Shown in pieces: positions 2,748 through 38,660 of a DNA stretch of 64,000 nucleotides. A program made the position numbers and the translations under genes. The stretch covers positions 174,831-238,830 of the forward strand of contig CBDCCX010000006.1 of NCBI GenBank assembly GCA_965215165.1. The letters run 5' to 3'. Within the stretch, counting starts at the first letter, position 1, and the number at the start of each line of letters is the position of its first letter. Origin of the DNA: Rhodothermales bacterium. GTDB taxonomy: Bacteria; Bacteroidota; Rhodothermia; Rhodothermales; JANQRZ01. The notes under the pieces were generated by a model, which worked only from the letters and a program-made list of their open reading frames with translations, made no database searches and was not told where the DNA came from.

Positions 2748-3358
2748 CGTGAGGGCCGCGGTGCGGTGGCAGCGGCGTGCTTCGGAGTCCGGCCCTCGAA
2801 GAAGGCGTGCATCGTTTTCAGGTCGGCCTCCAGGTCGCCCGACGGGACGAGGACCGGGCCGGCCACGACCTCCTTGCGGCCATAGTCGATCGTGACGAGG
2901 GAGATCGGGACGCCGGCCCCAAGCGCGATGTAGTAGAACCCCGTCCGCCACGCCGCCACCGCGCCGCGCGTCCCCTCCGGCGCGACCACGAGCAGGAACG
3001 CCTCGCGCGCCCGGAACGCCTCGACCGTCTGCTGGACCAGCCCGACCCCGGCGTCCCGCCGCACCGGGATCCCGCCGAACCACCGCATCACGAAGCCGAG
3101 CGGGGGTCGGAAGAGCGTGTGCTTCCCGAGGAACTGCGCGCCCATCCCCGTCGCCTGCCGCACCAGGACTCCGACGACGAAGCCCCAGTTCGACGTGTGC
3201 GGCGCAACGGCGATGACGTACTTGGGGGGGTTGGGAAAAGCACCGGTCAGCCGCCAGCCCATCAGCCGCAGCGCGGCCCGCCCGACGAGCCGCGTGAGGG
3301 CGTTGCCTCGGCGCGGCACCTGGTCGCCGAGGTCGGGCAAAGGGACGCGGTCGGCCAT
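2744..3358 (-). CDS. Lysophospholipid (1-acyl-sn-glycerol-3-phosphate) acyltransferase family protein
   Basis: 204 aa. The acyltransferase blocks VAPHTSNWGF and VVAPEGTRG are present. The HX4D block reads HTSNWG, with Gly at the usual Asp position. Confidence 0.7.
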   Translation of the reverse strand: MADRVPLPDLGDQVPRRGNALTRLVGRAALRLMGWRLTGAFPNPPKYVIAVAPHTSNWGFVVGVLVRQATGMGAQFLGKHTLFRPPLGFVMRWFGGIPVRRDAGVGLVQQTVEAFRAREAFLLVVAPEGTRGAVAAWRTGFYYIALGAGVPISLVTIDYGRKEVVAGPVLVPSGDLEADLKTMHAFFEGRTPKHAAATAPRPSR

Positions 3359-3527: not shown

Positions 3528-5033
3528 GAGCACGCTGACGAGCTGCGTCGCCTCGGCGCGTCCGGCCGTGAGGCGGCAGAGATAGGCCCCGGCTGCGCCC
3601 AGCCGGTCTGTGCTCACCGCGACGGTGTGCTCGCCCGCGCCCAATCGGCGGTCGTCCACGAGCCGGGCGCGGAGGCGGCCGACGAGGTCGTAGCACGCCA
3701 GCCGGACCGAAGTGGGGGCGCGCAGGTCGAAGCGAAAGGTGACCCCGTCGGTGGCCGGGTTCGGATACGGCACGAGGCGGAGCGAGGGGAGCGCGCCCTG
3801 GGCGTCCTCCAGGCTCGTCGTGCGGCCGGGCACGAGGGTGACGAGCATCTCGTCGAGCAGCGCCCGCCAGTTGCCCCAACTGTGGCCCTCGGGCACCTCG
3901 CGGTAGACGAGCGCGTGCTCGTTCGCCTCGAACACATCGCGCATCCGGCGTGCGCCATCTTGGGTGTCGTTGATGGTGCCGGTAGACAGGTAGACCTCGA
4001 ACCGCCCGGTCTCGGCCTCGGCCATCGCGTCGTAGATCGACGGCGAGGCCCAGAACGCAGGCGACTGGATCGCCAGCTTGCCGAACACCTCGGGGTAGCG
4101 CGTCCCGAGGTACGCCGAGAACAGCCCGCCCAGCGAGGTCCCGAGGATCACCCGCCCCTCGCGATCAGGCTGCGTCCGGTAGGCGGCGTCGACGACCGGC
4201 ACCAGCTCCTCGGCGAGGAACGCTGCGAAGTCCGGGTTGTCGACGTACTGCAGGGCCCGCCGGTTGTTGGCGTGATTGCCGACCTCGCGCGGGTCGACGA
4301 AGACGGCGATCACCGGAGCCGCCCGGCCGTCGGCGATCAGGTTGTCGAGCACGATGCGAAGGGCCCCGAGCCGGTCGTCGCTGTACTCGTGCCCGTCGGT
4401 GACGTAGACCACGGGAAGAGTCGCCGAGTCGCCGTAGCCAGCGGGCGTGTAGACGCGGTAGTGGACGGGGTAACCGAGGCGGGCGCTCTGGAGCGTGAGG
4501 TTCGGGGTGAAGGCTCCGGCGGGCACGGCCGGGTCGCGGACCGTCTCGGCGGGGAAGACCCAGGCGGGCATCCGCAGCTCGGAGTTCGGGCCGAAGCCGC
4601 TCCACTGTTGGTGCGGATTGGCGGGATCGAGGAGCCAGCTTCCGTCGCGGACCAGCTTGTAGTCGAGCCGGGCCGTGGCGGGGAAGCGCCGGACCCGGCG
4701 GCGCACGTCGCTCCGGCCGACGACGGCGAAGGCCGGCTCGGCGTTGGGGTTCCAGCCGTTGTGATCGCCCGCGAGGCGGACCGTCGTGCCCGGCCCCCGG
4801 TAGAGGTAGGCCACCGAGTCGCCGAGCGCGAACGGGATCTGCTCGGCGGCGACGAGGGCGTCCCAGAACAGGTCCATCGCGGCCTCACGCTCGTCGGGGT
4901 CGGGGATCGCGGCGACGGCGTCGAGGCTGTCGGTGAAAGCCTTGAAGGTCTCGAACGGGAGATTGCCCTGGGCGCAGACGGGGACGGCCAGAAGCGCGAC
5001 AGCGACCCCGAGGGCAGAGGTCGAGCGGAGCAT
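3525..5033 (-). CDS. Secreted esterase (enterochelin-esterase-like alpha/beta hydrolase) with a T9SS C-terminal sorting domain
   Basis: 502 aa. N-terminal signal peptide MLRSTSALGVAVALLAVPVCAQ. GTSLGGLFS nucleophile elbow. C-terminal LVPYPNPATDGVTFRFDL...LVSVL is typical of a Por/T9SS sorting domain. Confidence 0.75.
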   Translation of the reverse strand: MLRSTSALGVAVALLAVPVCAQGNLPFETFKAFTDSLDAVAAIPDPDEREAAMDLFWDALVAAEQIPFALGDSVAYLYRGPGTTVRLAGDHNGWNPNAEPAFAVVGRSDVRRRVRRFPATARLDYKLVRDGSWLLDPANPHQQWSGFGPNSELRMPAWVFPAETVRDPAVPAGAFTPNLTLQSARLGYPVHYRVYTPAGYGDSATLPVVYVTDGHEYSDDRLGALRIVLDNLIADGRAAPVIAVFVDPREVGNHANNRRALQYVDNPDFAAFLAEELVPVVDAAYRTQPDREGRVILGTSLGGLFSAYLGTRYPEVFGKLAIQSPAFWASPSIYDAMAEAETGRFEVYLSTGTINDTQDGARRMRDVFEANEHALVYREVPEGHSWGNWRALLDEMLVTLVPGRTTSLEDAQGALPSLRLVPYPNPATDGVTFRFDLRAPTSVRLACYDLVGRLRARLVDDRRLGAGEHTVAVSTDRLGAAGAYLCRLTAGRAEATQLVSVL

Positions 5034-10015: not shown

Positions 10016-11602
10016 ATGGACCTCTTCGCTGGCCTCCCACACCTCGTCTCGCTCGTGATCTTCCTGCCGGCGCTCGGCGCGCTCGCCGTGCTCCTCGCGC
10101 CGAGCGACAGCGCGGTGCGCTGGGTCTCGCTCGGCGTGACGGCGCTCACGTTCGTCGTCTCGCTCGGCCTGTGGGCGGGCTTCGATCCGGGCATCTCGAC
10201 GGCCGACGCGCCCCAGCTCGCCGAGGCGGCGCGGTGGTTTCCAGGCGTCGACATCAGCTACCTCGTCGGGGTCGACGGGCTGAACCTGCTGCTGCTGCTG
10301 CTGACCACGCTCCTGGGGCCGATCGTCGTGCTCTCGTCGTGGACCTACATCGGCAAGCACGTCAAAGGCTACTACGCGCTCCTGCTGATCCTCGAGACCG
10401 GCGTGCTCGGCGTCTTCGCCTCGTTCGACCTCTTCCTGTTCTACATCTTCTTCGAGCTGACGCTGATCCCGATGTACTTCATCATCGGCATCTGGGGCGG
10501 CGAGAACAGGATCTACGCCGCCGTCAAGTTCGTGATCTACACGCTCTTCGGCTCCCTCCTGATGCTGGTCGGGCTGCTGTGGCTCGGCTTCGCGGCGGGC
10601 GACGCGGTCAACGGCGGGGTCTTCACGACCAACTGGTACAAGCTCGTCTCGTTCGGCATCCCGCTCGGGTCGCAGACGTGGCTGTTCCTGCTCTTCGCGC
10701 TCGCCTTCTGCATCAAGGTCCCGCTCTTCCCGTTCCACACCTGGCTCCCCGACGCCCACGTGCAGGCCCCGACCGGCGGCTCGGTGGTGCTGGCCGGCGT
10801 GCTGCTCAAGATGGGGACCTACGGCCTGGTCCGCTTCTGCCTGCCCTTCTTCCCGAACGCCGCCCAGACCTTCGCGTGGCCGATTGCGATTCTGGCGCTC
10901 ATCGGGATCGTCTACGGCGCGCTCGTGGCGTACGCCCAAGAGGACGCCAAGAAGCTCGTCGCCTACTCGTCGGTGGCGCACCTCGGGTTCGTGGTGCTCG
11001 GCATCTTCGCCTTCACGACGGAGGCGCTCCAGGGCGCGATGATTCAGATGGTCAACCACGGCATCTCGACCGGCGCGCTGTTCCTGATCATCGGGATGCT
11101 CTACGAGCGGCGGCACACGCGCCTGATGGCCGACTACGGCGGCCTCGCCAAGTCCGTCCCGATCCTGACGTTCTTTATGGTCTTCAGCGTGCTGGCGTCG
11201 GTCGGGCTGCCGGGGCTGAACGGGTTCGTAGGCGAGTTCCTGATCCTGCTCGGGACCTTCAAGAGCAACGTCATCGGCGGCTGGGTGGTGACGGCGATTG
11301 CGACGAGCGGGGTCATCTTCGCGGCGGTCTACCTCTTGACGATGCTCTACAAGACGTTCTACGGGCCGCTCGACAAGCCCGAGAACGCGGCGATGCCGGA
11401 CCTCAACGGGCGCGAGATCGGCCTCTTGGTCCCGCTCGTGGTGCTTATGTTCTGGCTCGGCTTCGGGCCGGCCCCGTTCCTGGCGACGAGCGAGCCGGCG
11501 GTGCGCGACCTGCTGGAGACCGTCGAGACCAAACGCCTCGCCGCGATCGAGGCCGACCGCGAGGCCGTCGCCGTTCTGCCCGTGCCGAGCACGACGCCGT
11601 AG
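10016..11602 (+). CDS. nuoM: NADH-quinone oxidoreductase subunit M
   Basis: 528 aa. PLFPFHTWLPDAHVQAPTGGSVVLAGVLLKMGTYG is the NuoM/ND4 signature. Its TAG stop lies inside the palindrome at 11599-11626. Confidence 0.9.
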   Translation: MDLFAGLPHLVSLVIFLPALGALAVLLAPSDSAVRWVSLGVTALTFVVSLGLWAGFDPGISTADAPQLAEAARWFPGVDISYLVGVDGLNLLLLLLTTLLGPIVVLSSWTYIGKHVKGYYALLLILETGVLGVFASFDLFLFYIFFELTLIPMYFIIGIWGGENRIYAAVKFVIYTLFGSLLMLVGLLWLGFAAGDAVNGGVFTTNWYKLVSFGIPLGSQTWLFLLFALAFCIKVPLFPFHTWLPDAHVQAPTGGSVVLAGVLLKMGTYGLVRFCLPFFPNAAQTFAWPIAILALIGIVYGALVAYAQEDAKKLVAYSSVAHLGFVVLGIFAFTTEALQGAMIQMVNHGISTGALFLIIGMLYERRHTRLMADYGGLAKSVPILTFFMVFSVLASVGLPGLNGFVGEFLILLGTFKSNVIGGWVVTAIATSGVIFAAVYLLTMLYKTFYGPLDKPENAAMPDLNGREIGLLVPLVVLMFWLGFGPAPFLATSEPAVRDLLETVETKRLAAIEADREAVAVLPVPSTTP

Positions 11603-26074: not shown

Positions 26075-27961
26075 CTATCGCAGGACGACGAGGCGGCGGG
26101 TGAGCGAGCCGGACACGCTTCGGACGCGCACGACGTAGACCCCCGCCGGCAGCCCCGCTGTTGCCAGGCGCAGCGCGTGCGTCCCCGCCGCGAGCGGGCC
26201 GGCGTGCGGCAACGCCACCCGGCGGCCGAGCACATCGAAGAGTGCTACCTCCACCGGCTGTGACCAACCGAGCGTGACCGACACCGTGACGGAACCGCGC
26301 GCAGGGTTGGGGTAGGCTGCGAGCGCTGCGCCGGTAGCCAACGGCTCCGGCTCAGCGGCGACCGTGACTCCCCCTTCGTAGGCCCCGAGGTCTACTTCAC
26401 TGCCTACGACCCTCGGCTCGCCGGCCAGGTCTACTGGCAGTAGCTCAGCCGTGTCGCCGTCCGAGTCGAGGTCGAAAGCGTCCGGCGGTAGGAAGTCCGA
26501 GCGGCCGAAGTCGAGCGCGGGACTCTCCTCTTGGAGGCGGAGGTCGCCGTAGTCGTCGTCGTCGGTGCCCCAGGTGCCGTCGGGGCCGGGGTCGGGAGGG
26601 CGCACGAACAGCGGGTCGGTGTCGAGGATCGACTCGCAGCTAGCGGTGCCCGAGCCGTCCGGCGGGCAGCCGCCTCGGATGAGGATGTGCTGGAGCGTGG
26701 CGAACCCGCTCAGGGCTTCGACCTCCTGGCTGTTGTTCCAGAACACAGCGTTGCGCACCGTGGCTGATGCTCCACTCGTGATGCGGAGCCCGCCCCCCAC
26801 CTCTGCTTCGTTCGAGACGAGGGTGACGTTCGTGAGGGTGCCCACCGTACCGTTCCCCAATCTGAGTGCCCCGCTGAAATCGTCGGCAGTATTGCCAACA
26901 AATGCGGTGTTCGTCAGGTCGACGCGCGAAGCCGAAGCGGTCATCCCGCCGCCACTGCTCAAATCGTCCTGGGGATCAACGACGTTGCCGTAGAGGCCGA
27001 CGTTGACCAAGTCAACACTCGCCGATAGAATGGATAGACCCCCTCCCCCGTCAAAGGCATAGTTCCGCACGAACGTCGCCTCGACTACATCGACGGTGGC
27101 GCGGTCCGCGTCCATCGCCCCACCGAAGCTCGCGGTGTTCTCGACGAACTCGACCTCGCGCAGCACCGCTGACAGCGTGCCGCGCTCCACAGTCTCGACT
27201 ACCGCCATCGTCTCGCCCGCGATCTCCGCCTCTAGCTGCCGCCGCCGCTCGGCCTCCGACCCCCGCTCCAGGTCGCCCAAGAGCCACAACCCGCCCCCGA
27301 TCCCATTCAGCCCGTTGCGCGCGAACGCCACGCGCTCGAACACCACCCGCCCCGAGGCCCCGAAGAACGCCCCGCCGCCGCCGCCGAAGCCGTCGGTCTG
27401 CACCACCGTGTTCTCCACGATCCGGCAGTCGCGCACCGTCAGGCTCGCGTCCACGCCGTAGATCCCCGCGCCGCGGTTGTTTGGGTTGGCCCCGTTGCCG
27501 TAGCCATCGGTGATGGTGAAGCCGTCGAGCAGCGTCCCCTCGGCCACGCCGCTCGCGGTGATGACGTGGAAGGCGTTGTCGGTGCTGTCGCCGGGCACCC
27601 CGATGTTGCCGGACAGGACCGTGGGGTTCGCCTCGGGGTCGCGCTCGTTGAGCTGCGCTTCGGTGCCGTCGAAGCCACCGAAGAGCGCGGTCCCGCTGAC
27701 GAGGATGAACGAGGCGTCGCGGTCGACCACGCCGCTCTCGGCCGGGAGATACGTCCCGTCGGCGACCCAGATCTCGTCGCCTGCTTCGGCCGCGGCAAGC
27801 GCGTCTTGCAGATCGGCGAAGGCGTCATTCCAGGACGTGCCGTCGCCAGCCCCGGTAGCGTCGGCGTCGACGAAGAGCACGGGCTGTGCGGTGGCCGGGA
27901 AACAGAGCAGCGCAGCGACGAGGAGCGCGAAGCTCGGTAGGCGTGGGAGCAGAAAAGTCAA
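26075..27961 (-). CDS. T9SS-secreted right-handed beta-helix protein (paralogue 1)
   Basis: 628 aa with a TTG start. Signal peptide MTFLLPRLPSFALLVAALLCFPATAQ. Same architecture as 24169-26028. AT-rich putative promoter region at 27962-28096. Confidence 0.75.
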   Translation of the reverse strand: MTFLLPRLPSFALLVAALLCFPATAQPVLFVDADATGAGDGTSWNDAFADLQDALAAAEAGDEIWVADGTYLPAESGVVDRDASFILVSGTALFGGFDGTEAQLNERDPEANPTVLSGNIGVPGDSTDNAFHVITASGVAEGTLLDGFTITDGYGNGANPNNRGAGIYGVDASLTVRDCRIVENTVVQTDGFGGGGGAFFGASGRVVFERVAFARNGLNGIGGGLWLLGDLERGSEAERRRQLEAEIAGETMAVVETVERGTLSAVLREVEFVENTASFGGAMDADRATVDVVEATFVRNYAFDGGGGLSILSASVDLVNVGLYGNVVDPQDDLSSGGGMTASASRVDLTNTAFVGNTADDFSGALRLGNGTVGTLTNVTLVSNEAEVGGGLRITSGASATVRNAVFWNNSQEVEALSGFATLQHILIRGGCPPDGSGTASCESILDTDPLFVRPPDPGPDGTWGTDDDDYGDLRLQEESPALDFGRSDFLPPDAFDLDSDGDTAELLPVDLAGEPRVVGSEVDLGAYEGGVTVAAEPEPLATGAALAAYPNPARGSVTVSVTLGWSQPVEVALFDVLGRRVALPHAGPLAAGTHALRLATAGLPAGVYVVRVRSVSGSLTRRLVVLR

Positions 27962-28096
27962 GGGGAGCCTGGTAACATGACAAGGTCTGGCGCATCTCAG
28001 TATAGGACCTACCCCTATGAATATCCAAACCTTGTTGGAACGAACATCTTGCTATTCTCCAATTGAATCTATATATCTATTTCTTTCTTCCAGTCT

Positions 28097-32013: not shown

Positions 32014-33315
32014 ATGCGTATCGCCTGCCTCGCCCTGTTCGCCTGCCTCGTTGCCGCCTCCGCCTCCGGGCAGGAGGCCGGAACGTGGAGTCTCCTGCCA
32101 GCCTCCCCCGAGCACAGCTACCGGTTCGAGGACGCCAGCTTCGTCGACCCGCAGACCGGCTGGATCGTCAACGGAAGCGGCGAGGTGTTCCGCACCGACA
32201 ATGCCGGCGCGGACTGGACGCTCCAGGCCACGCTGCCCGCCTACCTCCGCTCGGTCGCCTTCGTCAGCGAGCGGCGCGGCATCATCGGAACCCTCGACCA
32301 GGAGGACGTGCTCTACGCGACGACCGACGGGGGCGAGACCTTCGTCGACCTCACCGACCGCATCAGCGGGCCGCGGCCGAAGGGCATCTGCGGGCTGTGG
32401 GCCGTCAACGAGCAGGTCATCTACGGGGCCGGGTGGTTCGCCTCGCCAGCGCACCTCGTCAAGACGACCGACGGTGGGCAGACGTGGACGTCGCGCTCGA
32501 TGGCCGAGTACGCCGGTTCGCTGGTGGACGTCTACTTCTGGGACGAGCAGCGCGGCCTGGCCGTGGGCGGAAGCGAGGGGACGAGCGGGGCCTCGCAAGC
32601 CGTCGTGCTGATGACGGAGGACGGGGGCGACACCTGGACCGTCCGCCACACCAGCAGCGACTTCGGCGAGTGGTCCTGGAAGATCACCTTCCCGACGCCG
32701 AGCACGGGCTACGTCTCGGTCGAGGGCACGGCCTTCCCGGCAAAGGTCTTGAAGACGACCGACGGCGGGTTCACCTGGACCGAGCTGGCAATCCCCGGCA
32801 GCACCGACCTCCAGGGCCTCGGCTTCATCACCGAGGACATGGGCTGGGCGAGCGGGCGCGGAACGACCTCGGTCACGACCGACGGCGGCGCAACCTGGGA
32901 GCCTATCACCCTCGACGGCGGCATCAACCGCTTCGCGTTCTTCGGCGACTCGCTCGGCTATGCGATGGGGGGGCGGATCTACGCCTACACCCCGCCCACT
33001 GGCACGAGCATCGCTGGTGAAGCCGCGCCCGGCAGCGGGCTTTCGCTCGGCGCACCCTACCCGAACCCGTTCGCGCAGACGGTCACGGTCCCGTTCTACC
33101 TCGACCGGCCCACCGAGATTAAGTTGGCCGTCTTCGACGTGCTTGGGCGGCGCGTGGCGGTGCTGGCAGAGGAGTATCGGGGAACAGGCGAGCACACCGT
33201 CGTCTGGCGAGGCACCGACGTGAGCGGTCAGCCCCTCGCGCCGGGGGCCTACGTCGTCCGTCTCACGGCCGCCGGCCAAAACGTGTCGCGGACGCTCCTT
33301 CGTGTGCGACCGTAG
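32014..33315 (+). CDS. T9SS-secreted BNR/Ycf48-like beta-propeller repeat protein
   Basis: Signal peptide. Six repeats of the TTDGGxTW type (TDNAGADWT, TTDGGETF, TTDGGQTWT, TEDGGDTWT, TTDGGFTWT, TTDGGATWE). C-terminal PYPNPFAQTVTVPFYL...LLRVRP sorting domain. Confidence 0.75.
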   Translation: MRIACLALFACLVAASASGQEAGTWSLLPASPEHSYRFEDASFVDPQTGWIVNGSGEVFRTDNAGADWTLQATLPAYLRSVAFVSERRGIIGTLDQEDVLYATTDGGETFVDLTDRISGPRPKGICGLWAVNEQVIYGAGWFASPAHLVKTTDGGQTWTSRSMAEYAGSLVDVYFWDEQRGLAVGGSEGTSGASQAVVLMTEDGGDTWTVRHTSSDFGEWSWKITFPTPSTGYVSVEGTAFPAKVLKTTDGGFTWTELAIPGSTDLQGLGFITEDMGWASGRGTTSVTTDGGATWEPITLDGGINRFAFFGDSLGYAMGGRIYAYTPPTGTSIAGEAAPGSGLSLGAPYPNPFAQTVTVPFYLDRPTEIKLAVFDVLGRRVAVLAEEYRGTGEHTVVWRGTDVSGQPLAPGAYVVRLTAAGQNVSRTLLRVRP

Positions 33316-33351: not shown

Positions 33352-33579
33352 CTAGGCCAGATCACGCCGCGCTCCTGCCACGAGAAGGACGGCGTCGTTC
33401 ACCGTTGCATTGGCCCGCTGCATCGGCATCGACGGCTATGAGATCAGGCCAGTCGCTGGGATAGCGGGCGTCTACAGCGTACTCGGAGAGCGCAGAGAGA
33501 TCGGCATGTCTTCGGCTTGGCACAGGTCTTCCTCCGCGAACCGGAGCCAGCGGTGCGCCTCAGCGATCCGGGCCGTCAC
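33352..33579 (-). pseudogene. HEPN-domain toxin relic (frameshifted, internally deleted)
   Basis: GTG overlaps the MNT stop (GTGA). Frame 1 gives VTARIAEAHRWLRFAEEDLCQAED...*. A second frame gives ADLSALSEYAVDARYPSDWPDL. A third gives RANATVNDAVLLVAGARRDLA*. The total is only about 76 codons, and the central Rx4-6H region is missing. Confidence 0.5.
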
Positions 33580-33860
33580 GGTGCAGCCTCACGCTCGTAC
33601 ACCACGCGCCCCTCGCGCAGTGCCTCGTGCAGGAGGGTGCCGACGAGCTCGCCGCGCCGCTCGATCTCCTCGGGCGTTGTCACGACCACGTCCTTTGGGA
33701 CGGGGAGGTCGGCTAGCGCCCGGCGCAACGAGATAGCGGCCTCGCGTTTGTTCTCTACGTGCGGAAGCACGACGAGGAAGTCGAGGTCGCTTCCGGGCCG
33801 AGCCGTAGCCCGCGCGTGGGGGCCGAAGACGAGCACCCGGAGCGGGCCACACGCCTGCAC
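33576..33860 (-). CDS. MNT-type nucleotidyltransferase (antitoxin of HEPN/MNT pairs); start uncertain
   Basis: LRVLVFGPHARATARPGSDLDFLVVL is the minimal NTase G[SP]x9-13DxD core. The only canonical in-frame start is GTG 33860. The frame stays open upstream into thiC remnant R3. Confidence 0.55.
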   Translation of the reverse strand: MQACGPLRVLVFGPHARATARPGSDLDFLVVLPHVENKREAAISLRRALADLPVPKDVVVTTPEEIERRGELVGTLLHEALREGRVVYEREAAP

Positions 33861-33929
33861 GAGCCGACGGGTCGCCGCTTCAACGTGGGAGGTGCCGGGA
33901 ATGAGCAGCGGCCTGACATCCGCACTGTG

Positions 33930-33995
33930 CGCTCGGCCGCGTAGTCGCGCCCGTCTTGGGTGATCTCCATCGAGTAGGGCTTCGGCCCCCGCAGT
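33930..33995 (-). pseudogene. thiC 3'-end remnant R3
   Basis: Translates MEITQDGRDYAAERTV, versus resident Thi[17 protein letters not shown]. The nucleotide run CCGCGTAGTCGCGC.CGTC.TGGGTGATCT.CATCGAG matches 36681-36720 of thiC. Confidence 0.65.
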
Positions 33996-34018
33996 ACGGC
34001 CGCGCCGGGGCGAGGCTC

Positions 34019-34885
34019 CTAGCCGGCTGTGGACCGGAGGTACCGATGGAGAAAACCGAGTACGCGGGTCCGGTAGGCGCTGGGGGCAAGGGCGAGGTAA
34101 TCCTCGTGCTTGCCTCCGTCCACCCACCATAGTGCCTTCGGGCGGTGAGCAGCTTGGTAGAGACGCCAGGAGTCGGCAGGCCGGGTGAGCCGGTCCCTCG
34201 TACCGGCCACGATGAGGACCGGAGCATCCAGTCTACCGATCGCTTCGGCGGGGCGGAGGTCGGCGGGTCGGGCACCGGTCCGTGCGGGCATGGACCGGAG
34301 GAGGAGCGGCGCGAGAGGCGGTCCGAGGGGGCCGAGCCAGCGACGGAGTCGGTTCTCGGTCGCGGATTCGATATCGGCGTAGACGGACTCGAGCACGACG
34401 GCGTCTGCGTCCAGGTGCTCGCCCGCGAGGGCTACGGCGGCCCCTCCGAGCGAGATGCCGACGGCGCCCACGCGCTCTCCGGGAAACCGGTGGCGGGCCT
34501 CGGCGACGGCTGCGACGGCGTCGAGCCGTTCGTGGTACCCCAGGGTGATCCGGTCGCCCGTGCTCTCTCCGTGCGCCTGGAGGTCGACAGCCAGCACCGC
34601 GTAGCCCGCATCGTGGAACAGCACGGCGCGGTCGCGTAGCGCATCGCGGCTAGACCGGATGCCGTGCAGGAGGACGATGGCACCACCGCCGGGGACCCCC
34701 TCCGCAGCCCACGCTGCGAGCGAGGCCCCGGAGCCGCTCGGGAAGCGCACGACCTCGGCGTGGAGTGCCGACGGCGGGGGCGCTACCTCAGTGTGTGCCG
34801 GCCGGGTCACCGCTGCTCCGACGAGCGAGCATCCCGCTCCCATGCTCAGCGCGCCCACCCACACAGCGACAGCGAGGAGACGCAC
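34019..34885 (-). CDS. Alpha/beta hydrolase (probable lipoprotein or exported)
   Basis: IVLLHGIRSS, the GISLGG nucleophile elbow, and C-terminal VDGGKHED. GTG 34885 gives a signal-like VRLLAVAVWVGALSMGAGCS. The ORF-track start 35035 would read through thiC remnant R2. Confidence 0.7.
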   Translation of the reverse strand: MRLLAVAVWVGALSMGAGCSLVGAAVTRPAHTEVAPPPSALHAEVVRFPSGSGASLAAWAAEGVPGGGAIVLLHGIRSSRDALRDRAVLFHDAGYAVLAVDLQAHGESTGDRITLGYHERLDAVAAVAEARHRFPGERVGAVGISLGGAAVALAGEHLDADAVVLESVYADIESATENRLRRWLGPLGPPLAPLLLRSMPARTGARPADLRPAEAIGRLDAPVLIVAGTRDRLTRPADSWRLYQAAHRPKALWWVDGGKHEDYLALAPSAYRTRVLGFLHRYLRSTAG

Positions 34886-34953
34886 CTGGGGCGGGGTGAG
34901 TCGCGGCCAGCCCCTTCCCGGCGCTGGGGTTCTGGTGATGAGTCTGCGTCGCG

Positions 34954-35022
34954 TCACGTTCCCTGGTAGAGTTCGCCGCTCCCCGCGCCGAGCCGCTCGG
35001 CCTTCTGCCTCATGCCGCTCGC
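34954..35022 (-). pseudogene. thiC 3'-end remnant R2
   Basis: Translates MRQKAERLGAGSGELYQGT*, versus resident Thi[20 protein letters not shown]. Confidence 0.6.
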
Positions 35023-35051
35023 AGTCCATGATCACAAATCCGAACAGCTTC

Positions 35052-35558
35052 TCACGAGGTCACGGTCTTCGGGAACGAAGGCGCGAACCCAGAGCCGGGG
35101 CGCTCTCCCGAAGCGTCGTAGAACGAGAGACCGCCTTCCACGTCGCAGAGCCACACCTCGCGCGCGCCACCGGCGAGGTAGAGTCGGATCTTCTCCTCCA
35201 TCGCCCGCTTCGGGTTGGACCGAGAGAGAACCTCGATGACCAGCTCGGGCATCACGGGACTAGCCTCGGCGTCATCTAGGATCTGCACGGCCCGCTCGTC
35301 GGAGATCCAGACCACGTCCGGCACCTTCACCCCCTCCGGCGTCTCGACCGCGAACTCTACAGTGGGTTCGCCCTCGCCCCGGACGTGCTCGAGGAGCAGC
35401 CGGATGAGGCGGCTCTGGTGAAAGCTGTGGCGCGGCTTGTGCGGACTCAAGATGATCTGGTCGGGTTCGGCGGTCTCGACCTTGAAGGGTAGATCGCATA
35501 GCTGGGGGTCCGTGAGCACACGGTGCCACAGGGAAGTCGTTGTAGTCGGAGCAGGCAT
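35052..35558 (-). CDS. Uma2 (DUF820) family putative endonuclease
   Basis: 168 aa. PDVVWISDER...VMPELVIEVLSRSNPKRAMEEKIRLYLAGGAREVWLCD is the PD-(D/E)xK Uma2 pattern. Confidence 0.75.
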   Translation of the reverse strand: MPAPTTTTSLWHRVLTDPQLCDLPFKVETAEPDQIILSPHKPRHSFHQSRLIRLLLEHVRGEGEPTVEFAVETPEGVKVPDVVWISDERAVQILDDAEASPVMPELVIEVLSRSNPKRAMEEKIRLYLAGGAREVWLCDVEGGLSFYDASGERPGSGFAPSFPKTVTS

Positions 35559-35599
35559 GGGGGCCAGGCACAGTCAGCGGGACGTGTAGCCCGTGAACG

Positions 35600-35800
35600 T
35601 TAGATCTCCTGGTACAGTTCGCCGCCGCCGTTGCGGAACTGCTCGGCCTTCGCCCGCATCCCCTCGGGAATCGCTGCCTCGACAGCCACGCCGTGCTGTT
35701 GGGCGTAGTCGCGCACCCCAGTGATCTTTATCGAGCAGAACGTCGACCCGTACAGCGAGCAGCCCGGCTACCTTCACGCTGTCCTTCGGAAGCGTCTACT
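35600..35800 (-). pseudogene. thiC 3'-end remnant R1 (about 200 bp)
   Basis: Translates [53 protein letters not shown], versus resident [54 protein letters not shown]. It has a one-codon deletion and, at its upstream edge, a 1-nt deletion. Confidence 0.8.
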
Positions 35801-35843
35801 CCTGAGCGTGTTGCAGCACATGGTCGTAGAGAGCTTGGCCGAT

Positions 35844-36281
35844 CTAGAATCCCGCGTCCCGCCGCAGCGCGTCCATCAGCGGCCTGACGGCGGGAATCAG
35901 CGAACGCTCCTTCGCCTTCGCCAGCGCGCCGAGCAAACCTGTGTGGCGGAGGCCGAGTGAGGCGGCCAGCCGTCGCGCCGCCCGCTCGTCGAGCAGAATC
36001 CAATCGGCCTCCAGCTCCAGCGCGAGGGCCAGCGCTTCGGCTTCGCCCGCGTGAACGTCAGCCTCGAACGCGCGGACCAAGCGAGTCGACTGCACAGACC
36101 GCGTCTCGATCCAATCCGCCGTCTCCACGTCGGCGGCTCCGGGCCGCTTGGCTCCTCCGACTACGATTTCCCGATACACCGTCTCGGGAATCGTGAGGGA
36201 GCCGAACAGATCACGCAGCAGATGCAGGTGGCCGATAGCCGCGAGATTGACGATGGGCGACGTGTCGCTGACGACCGTCAC
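35844..36281 (-). CDS. PIN-like (DUF3368 family) toxin, possibly C-terminally truncated by an in-frame TAG
   Basis: MTVVSDTSPIVNLAAIGHLHLL...EAEALALALELEADWILLDERAAR is the DUF3368/PIN pattern. It sits 2 nt after the UPF0175 gene. Past the TAG the frame continues as IGQALYDHVLQHAQE*. Confidence 0.7.
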   Translation of the reverse strand: MTVVSDTSPIVNLAAIGHLHLLRDLFGSLTIPETVYREIVVGGAKRPGAADVETADWIETRSVQSTRLVRAFEADVHAGEAEALALALELEADWILLDERAARRLAASLGLRHTGLLGALAKAKERSLIPAVRPLMDALRRDAGF

Positions 36282-36283
36282 GC

Positions 36284-36514
36284 CTAGAGCGATTGCAGCG
36301 CGTCGAGGTCCGCGTCGAAGTCCTCAGCGTCGTAGTGGACCGGACTCTCCCGGCTTGCGAGCAGGTGCTGAAACGCGAAGCGGTCTAGCTGCGCGACCTC
36401 GGCTGCCTTCATCAGCGACAGGCCTTTCCGGAAGAGCATGACGGCGGTCTCCTGGCGAAACTCGCTCTCGGAGATGCGCGCGGCGCGTAGCGTGTCCTCG
36501 GTGATGGCAACCAT
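36284..36514 (-). CDS. UPF0175 family antitoxin
   Basis: 76 aa from ATG 36514. AVMLFRKGLSLMKAAEVAQLDRFAFQHLLASRESPVHY matches the UPF0175 HTH pattern that pairs with DUF3368. Confidence 0.7.
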   Translation of the reverse strand: MVAITEDTLRAARISESEFRQETAVMLFRKGLSLMKAAEVAQLDRFAFQHLLASRESPVHYDAEDFDADLDALQSL

Positions 36515-36573
36515 GGCGATTTCGACTGAATGGAAACATTCTTCACCGTCCCAGCCCGAAACGGTTCCGGGGG

Positions 36574-38660
<2,087 letters not shown>

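Follow-up and report, generated by a model that had tools for sequence, protein, structure and literature searches.

Several described systems place incoming DNA at the 3' end of a gene. In Escherichia coli, e14 and phage 21 insert inside the 3' end of the essential metabolic gene icd and supply a functional end; e14 starts 165 nt before the icd stop codon, and the displaced end follows as the 165-nt pseudogene icdC. Cis-mobilizable elements of the Streptococcus thermophilus ICESt1/ICESt3 family reportedly accrete in tandem at the 3' end of fda. In transformable bacteria, homology-facilitated illegitimate recombination is said to have been described by de Vries and Wackernagel in 2002 and by Prudhomme et al. 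in 2002, and insertion with long target duplication reportedly goes back to Nobusato et al. in 2000. Restriction-modification genes have been found inserted with long direct repeats of the target and without mobility genes, in some cases overlapping gene 3' ends (PMC2853133; Furuta, Abe and Kobayashi 2010). There is as yet no settled account of how small toxin-antitoxin (TA), restriction and other defence modules that lack mobility genes are transferred between genomes, and no mechanism has been attached to insertion with long target duplication since its description in 2000. Here we analyse a 64-kb stretch of DNA (64,000 nt, the window) from a Rhodothermales bacterium, in which dead copies of the 3' end of thiC separate four small cargo units directly downstream of the intact gene. 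The interpretation of these units as a stack of successive insertions is supported. Insertion anchored by homology and free of a recombinase is the reading we favour, and a trans-acting recombinase is its main rival.

The anchor gene thiC is intact (36574..38505, minus strand, 643 amino acids), and its product is 92-94% identical to the ThiC proteins of metagenome-assembled genomes of Rhodothermales. Its last 327 nt were used as a blastn query against the whole window with a significance cut-off of E < 0.01. Apart from the gene itself, three matches were returned and no others, all on the thiC strand: R1 (match 35606-35797, 79.7% identity over 197 nt, E = 8e-45), R3 (33931-33988, 86.2% over 58 nt, E = 2e-14), and R2 (34962-35009, 79.6% over 49 nt, E = 1e-3). 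With positions counted in nt back from the thiC 3' end, the R1 remnant (35600..35797, minus) runs from -203 to a TAA stop codon (35600-35602). R2 (34954..35016, minus) holds the last ~20 codons and ends in an in-frame TGA stop codon, and R3 (33931..33993, minus) covers approximately -153 to -95 and is truncated on its 3' side. R2 is marginal alone (tblastn E = 5e-3); it also matches the thiC tails of two relatives, L085 (E = 1e-5) and L175 (E = 1e-6). The initial annotation of this DNA had proposed three additional thiC 3'-end copies in the orientation of the gene, which these searches bear out, and tblastn returned the remnant peptides it had quoted. Some of its details needed correction. The identity of R1 is 80% and not roughly three-quarters; the one-codon deletion in R1 is seen in the alignment, and the indel at its upstream edge is 2 nt long rather than 1 nt. 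R3 contains no frameshift: its similarity to thiC stops at about -95, at a deletion junction with an MNT nucleotidyltransferase gene. The decay gradient that had been read along the array stands as truncation and cargo decay, but not by identity, which is not monotonic (R3 86%, R1 80%, R2 80%).

That the interval behind thiC should vary in presence and absence among related Rhodothermales was confirmed in the relatives L082-L089, recovered by a ThiC search (84-94% identity to the window ThiC). The distance from thiC to the convergent gene with a type IX secretion system (T9SS) sorting tail is 3.2 kb in the window. In L084, thiC directly abuts the orthologue of this convergent BNR gene, and this is the empty site; in L086 it abuts a convergent peptidase gene. 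thiC is followed by a Metallophos gene in L083, by Uma2 and then Metallophos in L085, by a 172-aa gene and an acetyltransferase gene in L087, and by a DUF3368 relic in L089. Single units ending in a remnant were found in L082 (an Eco57I/TaqI-like methylase gene and a 240-aa gene, then a 140-nt remnant) and in L088 (HipA and GmrSD genes on the opposite strand, then a remnant of 201 nt that shares 98.5% identity with the live tail). A further locus, L175, carries a longer array with the order thiC, TAa, Ra, TAb, Rb, Uma2, Rc, where TAa and TAb are TA units and Ra, Rb and Rc are remnants.

The comparison with L175 bears directly on the order of insertion. Window positions 36739-35051, which comprise the live tail from -166, unit 1, R1 and Uma2, align end to end with Ra, TAb, Rb and Uma2 of L175 (81% identity over 1694 nt), so that L175 has the arrangement of the window plus one extra TA unit next to thiC. 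The live thiC tail of the window (the last ~203 nt, 36574..36776, minus), which recurs downstream, corresponds in position to Ra, a dead remnant. A segment that is live in the window and dead in L175 is direct evidence of proximal stacking. TAa is no recent duplicate of TAb, since the two share only ~52% nucleotide identity. The live tail of the window was probably imported along with unit 1. R1 and Uma2 of the window are in turn collinear with the live tail and Uma2 of L085 (76.5% over 746 nt). The proposal that the newest unit lies closest to thiC holds for the proximal unit only; the hydrolase unit is missing from both L175 and L085, and its place in the insertion order is ambiguous.

Whether the repeats are copies of the recipient's own tail or alleles from elsewhere can be seen in L082. 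Its thiC is 95-98% identical to that of L084 over the 400 nt before the tail and only ~76% identical thereafter, whereas the L082 remnant is 90% identical to the L084 tail. The live tail of L082 is thus foreign and the remnant native. Synonymous and non-synonymous differences per site (pS and pN) between live tail and remnant were 0.51 and 0.074 for R1 of the window, 0.35 and 0.088 for L082, 0.28 and 0.037 for L071, 0.19 and 0.019 for L073, and 0.046 and 0.013 for L088. For R1, dS was 0.84 and dN/dS 0.09, comparable to the ratios in true orthologue pairs (0.02-0.07). Among the remnants, only R3 and Rc of L175, both truncated on the 3' side, fall short of the gene 3' end; all the others have kept an in-frame stop codon, and in several pairs the stop codons of live tail and remnant differ (TGA/TAG in L088, TAA/TGA in L073). 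When duplication followed by neutral decay was simulated, R1 was reproduced in 1 of 2039 runs. The mostly synonymous divergence and the differing stop codons identify the repeats as diverged functional alleles and not as a copied target. At the level of sequence, these comparisons demonstrate that each insertion brought a foreign functional tail allele together with cargo, that the recipient's tail was left downstream as a dead remnant, and that the gene reads through the imported tail after insertion. Repeated insertion into the thiC 3' end with a replacement end and displacement of the old one, as put forward in the initial annotation, is upheld by the series of relatives, the tail swap in L082, the L175 array and the synonymous divergence.

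To place the window among other genomes, each locus's own thiC tail was compared with its flanks in 169 thiC loci (L175, which was found via its cargo, is excluded from this count). Remnants were present at eight: the window, L082, L088, L071, L073, L101, L140 and L171. A scan of genome contigs with the conserved C-terminal half of ThiC gave 80 loci from many phyla, none of them in a close relative, and was used for the census rather than to compare synteny. Among metagenome contigs, a DNA pattern specific to the tail of this clade had no match. L071, a Nitrosomonadales metagenome-assembled genome (MAG), has two Bro-N genes as cargo, and L073 (Georgfuchsia) has a ParE toxin-antitoxin pair within 660 nt. 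On the metagenome contig L101 the cargo is, by eye and with no Pfam check, a DsbA-like thioredoxin gene, and the remnant reaches to approximately -470 with an internal deletion. Two further metagenome contigs have no cargo between the live tail and a complete remnant. In L140 (2136-2700) a 62-nt spacer is followed by a complete remnant from -165 to the stop codon and then by a Phd/RelE-like antitoxin-toxin pair (by eye, no Pfam check); in L171 an 85-nt spacer precedes the remnant. The spacer of L140 indicates that the most recent tail replacement there brought almost no cargo.

As a control, the same remnant test was applied to 983 long open reading frames (ORFs) of these loci, thiC included. 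thiC gave the five strongest remnant matches. The non-thiC genes gave seven matches, of which five spanned the whole query and were tandem-paralogue-like (unchecked singly) and two were short; none of the seven is a clear remnant of a gene 3' end. Remnants were found at almost no gene but thiC. Within the window, the last 256 nt of a 658-aa ORF (26075-28051, minus) recur at 80% identity 1.65 kb downstream; as the match spans the whole query, this is probably a tandem paralogue pair and not a 3'-end remnant. A separate observation concerns L011 (2815-3320), a Verrucomicrobiota MAG, in which thiC is followed immediately by an MNT gene and, by eye, a DUF559-type relic, and no remnant was detected. 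In many phyla, it seems, small genes of TA type are commonly found behind thiC.

On balance we think it somewhat more likely than not that the array, a stack of small accessory units added one after another within the last 60-200 nt of thiC, was built by host recombination with no dedicated recombinase. The left join would be ordinary homologous recombination inside thiC with donor DNA that carries cargo behind its own thiC. ThiC proteins are 75-85% identical even between phyla, and thiC would for this reason make a good one-sided anchor for diverged donors. The units resemble the flanking DNA in G+C content (63-74%), as would be expected of donors with a similar base composition. For a new unit, the right join would be illegitimate: its far end would be attached somewhere within the recipient tail by end-joining that is templated or guided by microhomology. 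A spreading unit would instead be joined by homologous recombination between its attached decayed thiC-like segment and the recipient tail, and this would leave a chimeric remnant. Stacks would grow by repetition and shrink by recombination between direct repeats, and addictive cargo such as TA or restriction-modification genes would aid the persistence of a unit.

Two junctions bear on the proposed illegitimate join. In L082, the 30 nt directly upstream of the remnant are an inverted copy (27 of 30 nt) of the remnant's own positions -80 to -50 (10676-10705 and 10764-10793); read as a snap-back copy, this is a hallmark of templated end-joining. No inverted tail copy was found upstream of the other remnants. 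In the window, the motif GAGACG is common to the end of the PIN toxin gene and to thiC at -203. Homology-anchored insertion explains why tail alleles are imported and why some remnants are chimeric. It also explains the snap-back junction, the units without cargo and the cargo on either strand, as well as the small unit size, the lack of recombinases and the preference for thiC, the last through its high conservation. The presence of a functional gene end on the incoming DNA in every case that reaches the gene end also points to homology-anchored capture of DNA from relatives and not to transposition.

R1 itself is made of two parts. Its 5' part is decayed, with a 2-nt and a 3-nt deletion and the loss of one Cys, and its 3' part is nearly intact: at columns invariant in nine functional alleles, mismatches number 16 of 64 between -203 and about -118 and 3 of 59 from there to the stop codon. 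By this pattern R1 is a chimeric remnant. The 2-nt and 3-nt deletions of the decayed part are also present in Ra and Rb of L175, and a further 6-nt deletion is common to Ra, Rb and Rc. The shared deletions imply that the upstream parts of R1, Ra, Rb and Rc are related by descent or gene conversion and are not fresh, independent displacements. A more specific form of homology-driven insertion, which we advance tentatively as a possibility, is that TA and nuclease cassettes of Rhodothermales, and perhaps of other groups, carry a decayed thiC 3' end as a built-in homology arm. Live tail and arm together would give such a cassette two stretches of homology to a single, universally conserved target and let it home to thiC in any related genome by host recombination alone, whatever lies downstream, and the repeats would take an attC-like role without a recombinase of their own. 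The contrast between the decayed 5' part and the intact 3' part of R1 argues for a carried arm, as do the deletions it has in common with Ra and Rb despite the ~52% identity of TAa and TAb.

Two further similarities were noted. Downstream of Uma2, L085 has a faint and degraded thiC-like segment (11530-11570) that contains the derived string GCCCTACTCG, as does R3 of the window (33960-33990, after the hydrolase gene); this hints at a single old remnant in two settings. The sequence 3' of the L088 remnant and that 3' of R1 may share common descent, but the match between them is too short to judge.

Other observations weigh against insertion by host recombination alone. Remnants R1 and Rb begin at -203 (G|AGAC), as do those of L088 and L171, and the start at -140 (GCTCGATGAAG) recurs in L082 and in the Nitrosomonadales MAG L071. 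Starts at the same nucleotide are predicted by a sequence-specific enzyme and not by pure end-joining, and homology-anchored insertion fails to account for them in unrelated lineages. The similar thiC-like right arm beside different cargoes also resembles an att site. An incomplete P4-like contig from IMG/VR (L081; DUF3987, CHC2 primase and terminase-like genes) has an intact, in-frame thiC tail at 965-1140. This tail may represent an attP; the contig sequence breaks off too early for any integrase to be seen. Finally, the search of this genome for a trans-acting recombinase covered 64 kb only, and it rested on six seed proteins, not on profile models.

The recurrent starts, the shared arm and L081 together keep a trans-acting site-specific recombinase as the main rival. 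Under this hypothesis the thiC 3' end would be an attB, the replacement tail would be part of an attP, and the stack would reflect tandem accretion of integrative elements, eroded or integrase-less and cis-mobilizable, that are moved in trans. We judge it rather unlikely, for all that e14 at icd is a clear precedent, that starts recur at -203 (R1, L088, L171) and -140 (L082, L071), and that a P-arm-like decayed thiC segment with shared indels lies beside different cargoes. The recombinase searches bear on it. For the window and all loci, the ORFs of 100 aa or more were compared by phmmer with E. coli seeds for tyrosine recombinases (intE, intA, intS, intD, xerC) and a serine recombinase (pinE); a regular-expression motif screen was dropped as too strict, since lambda-type and P4-type integrases would escape it. 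The interval 33352-36576 contains no recombinase, in agreement with the initial annotation, and all ORFs there are accounted for by the ORF map and Pfam; none was found by phmmer in the rest of the window. No integrase lies in or beside the nine remnant-bearing loci. A tyrosine recombinase gene lies within 10 kb of thiC at 2 of ~170 loci (L055 and L047), 6.5-7 kb away, with neither a remnant nor a tRNA gene nearby.

Further evidence on site-specific elements comes from viral sequences and from the junctions. Among 2.9 million viral contigs, scanned with the tail, by tail alignment and with the -140-class pattern, only L081 has a thiC tail without the gene body, and the -140 pattern matched no thiC-tail fragment in any of them. 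In phage and plasmid records, nearly all tblastn matches were to full-length thiC. The lack of -140-class fragments in the viral contigs, the cargo-free units of 62 and 85 nt, the other starts (approximately -470, -180, -166 and -72) and the inverted templated copy of the target at the L082 junction count against site-specific elements. No terminal inverted repeats or other shared motifs were found at the unit ends.

Strict insertion with long target duplication supposes that cargo arrives without thiC sequence, that the recipient tail is copied to both sides, and that the downstream copy then decays. We regard this as very improbable, and for the window it is already contradicted by the allele comparisons. 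The described cases are restriction-modification genes that lack mobility genes and have repeats of 30-500 bp (PMC2853133), and L082 (methylase unit) and L088 (GmrSD) hold cargo of this kind. In L176, a TA locus without thiC, a related UPF0175/PIN pair (68% identity) is flanked by a 22-nt direct repeat (95%; 3266-3287 and 4152-4173), which extends by weaker similarity to ~55 nt and comes from a different target; its downstream copy falls within a convergent gene of 144 aa, at the 3' end. This TA family may, to judge from L176, insert with long repeats at other gene ends too. Against strict duplication stand the mostly synonymous, orthologue-like differences between tail and remnant (R1 above all), the stop codons that differ even in the youngest pairs (L088 and L073), the single matching run of the simulation, and the foreign live tail of L082.

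We give next to no credence to an integron-like cassette array with the thiC-like repeats as folded single-strand sites (attC analogues), because, small as the units are, co-oriented in the window, mostly promoterless-looking, repeat-separated and loaded with TA cargo, the remnants fold as single strands no better than shuffled controls (z -0.9 to +1.05), no integron integrase or other tyrosine recombinase was found, and cargo lies on the opposite strand in L071, L088 and L101.

The individual units of the window all lie on the minus strand. Unit 1 (35798..36573) consists of a 59-nt spacer, a UPF0175 antitoxin gene (36284-36514; PF03683, Pfam E = 1e-17) and a DUF3368/PIN toxin gene (35844-36281; PF11848, E = 4e-6). 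The two small genes are adjacent, as in a type II TA pair, and homologous genes are paired likewise in L175 and L176. Unit 1 is 80% identical in nucleotides to TAb of L175, where the PIN toxin also has its closest homologue (84% amino acid identity). The toxin gene has a nonsense change, TGG to TAG, at codon 146, and its homologues are 161-164 aa long. Beyond the TAG (35798-35846) the frame continues for 15 more sense codons to a second stop codon that directly abuts R1; as the frame reads, the ancestral PIN ORF ended at 35798, adjoining R1. The toxin of unit 1 may be inactive while the antitoxin is intact. Unit 2 is an intact Uma2/DUF820 nuclease-like gene (35052..35558, 168 aa, Pfam E = 3e-17), whose product is 79% identical to that of the Uma2 gene directly behind thiC in L085; L175 has a Uma2 gene as well. 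Exact-protein look-ups with the window ThiC and Uma2 gave no match.

Unit 3 (34019..34957) encodes an alpha/beta hydrolase (Pfam Hydrolase_4, E = 3e-17) with a lipoprotein-like signal peptide. Its start is uncertain, being either a GTG that overlaps the R2 stop codon or a GTG further downstream; the overlapping start was not compelling, and the downstream one gives a better signal peptide. Unit 4 (33352..33860) comprises the MNT nucleotidyltransferase gene (33576-33860, NTP_transf_2, E = 9e-8), which has no canonical start codon, and a broken HEPN relic (33352-33579). The cargo assignments of the initial annotation were supported by Pfam for UPF0175, DUF3368/PIN, Uma2, the hydrolase and MNT; the HEPN pieces had no Pfam match. 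Co-orientation of cargo with thiC, also proposed there, is true of the window and is not a rule, given the opposite-strand cargo noted above.

Upstream of thiC, a thiamine pyrophosphate (TPP) riboswitch was confirmed by an Rfam RF00059 match (38564..38659, minus; score 68.4 bits, gathering threshold 54.3). The DNA that runs from thiC to the far side of the array showed no terminator-like site, and transcriptional read-through from the riboswitch-controlled thiC promoter into the units is therefore possible; the promoter scan used is poorly suited to this phylum. The distal border of the hot spot is the convergent BNR gene with the T9SS sorting tail (32014..33315, plus, by Pfam). Within thiC, the 12-nt direct repeat TTCTGCTCGATG occurs twice (36700-36747), 24 nt apart start to start, and encodes two FCSM motifs. 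The TTCTGCTCGATG copies coincide with or adjoin several of the remnant starts, as well as the deletion inside the L101 remnant.

The thiC loci form a graded natural series that includes an empty site, single units, stacks, a lineage-specific addition and near-cargo-free units, and the thiC tail is a concrete target that has been hit in several phyla. Should the trans-acting recombinase prove true, thiC would be an attachment site both new and widespread, and the cargo mobilised there would be very small. Literature searches on thiC as an insertion site returned chance word matches only, and those on one-sided homology capture combined with partial duplication of the anchor returned nothing relevant. 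The statement that nothing similar had been described was nevertheless too strong, as both e14 at icd and insertion with long target duplication (PMC2853133) precede it.

Like e14, the thiC units are flanked by direct repeats of a gene 3' end, and the gene is intact through the imported end. e14 differs in its size (15 kb) and in having its own integrase and excisionase; the thiC units are 0.06-3 kb long, have no tyrosine or serine recombinase in the element or the array, and are stacked several deep. With the integrase-less units of the ICESt1/ICESt3 family they share tandem arrangement between repeats derived from a gene 3' end, but those units reportedly depend for mobilisation on an integrase that an adjacent integrative conjugative element encodes, and neither such an element nor such an integrase was found at the thiC array. 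attC hairpins and an IntI integrase, which define integrons, were likewise not found there. Homology-facilitated illegitimate recombination, as it is said to proceed, combines one homologous anchor with one microhomology join and needs no recombinase; the mosaic thiC and the snap-back copy of L082, and GAGACG at the PIN gene end and at -203, are candidate counterparts here of the anchor and of the far-side join. It is reportedly accompanied by deletion of recipient DNA, not by partial duplication of the anchor. With insertion with long target duplication the thiC loci have in common small units (<20 kb) that lack mobility genes, flanking direct repeats some tens to hundreds of bp long (49-197 nt in the window, above the 30-bp lower limit) that are single-copy at the empty site L084, and restriction-type cargo in L082 and L088. 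They differ from it in that the two repeat copies do not both stem from the recipient target, as the synonymous divergence, the stop codons and the foreign tail of L082 indicate, and in that the window carries TA, nuclease and hydrolase genes. What is new here is that the repeats are foreign alleles, that the cargo is mostly of TA and nuclease type, and that one gene end has been hit repeatedly, with stacking, in several phyla.

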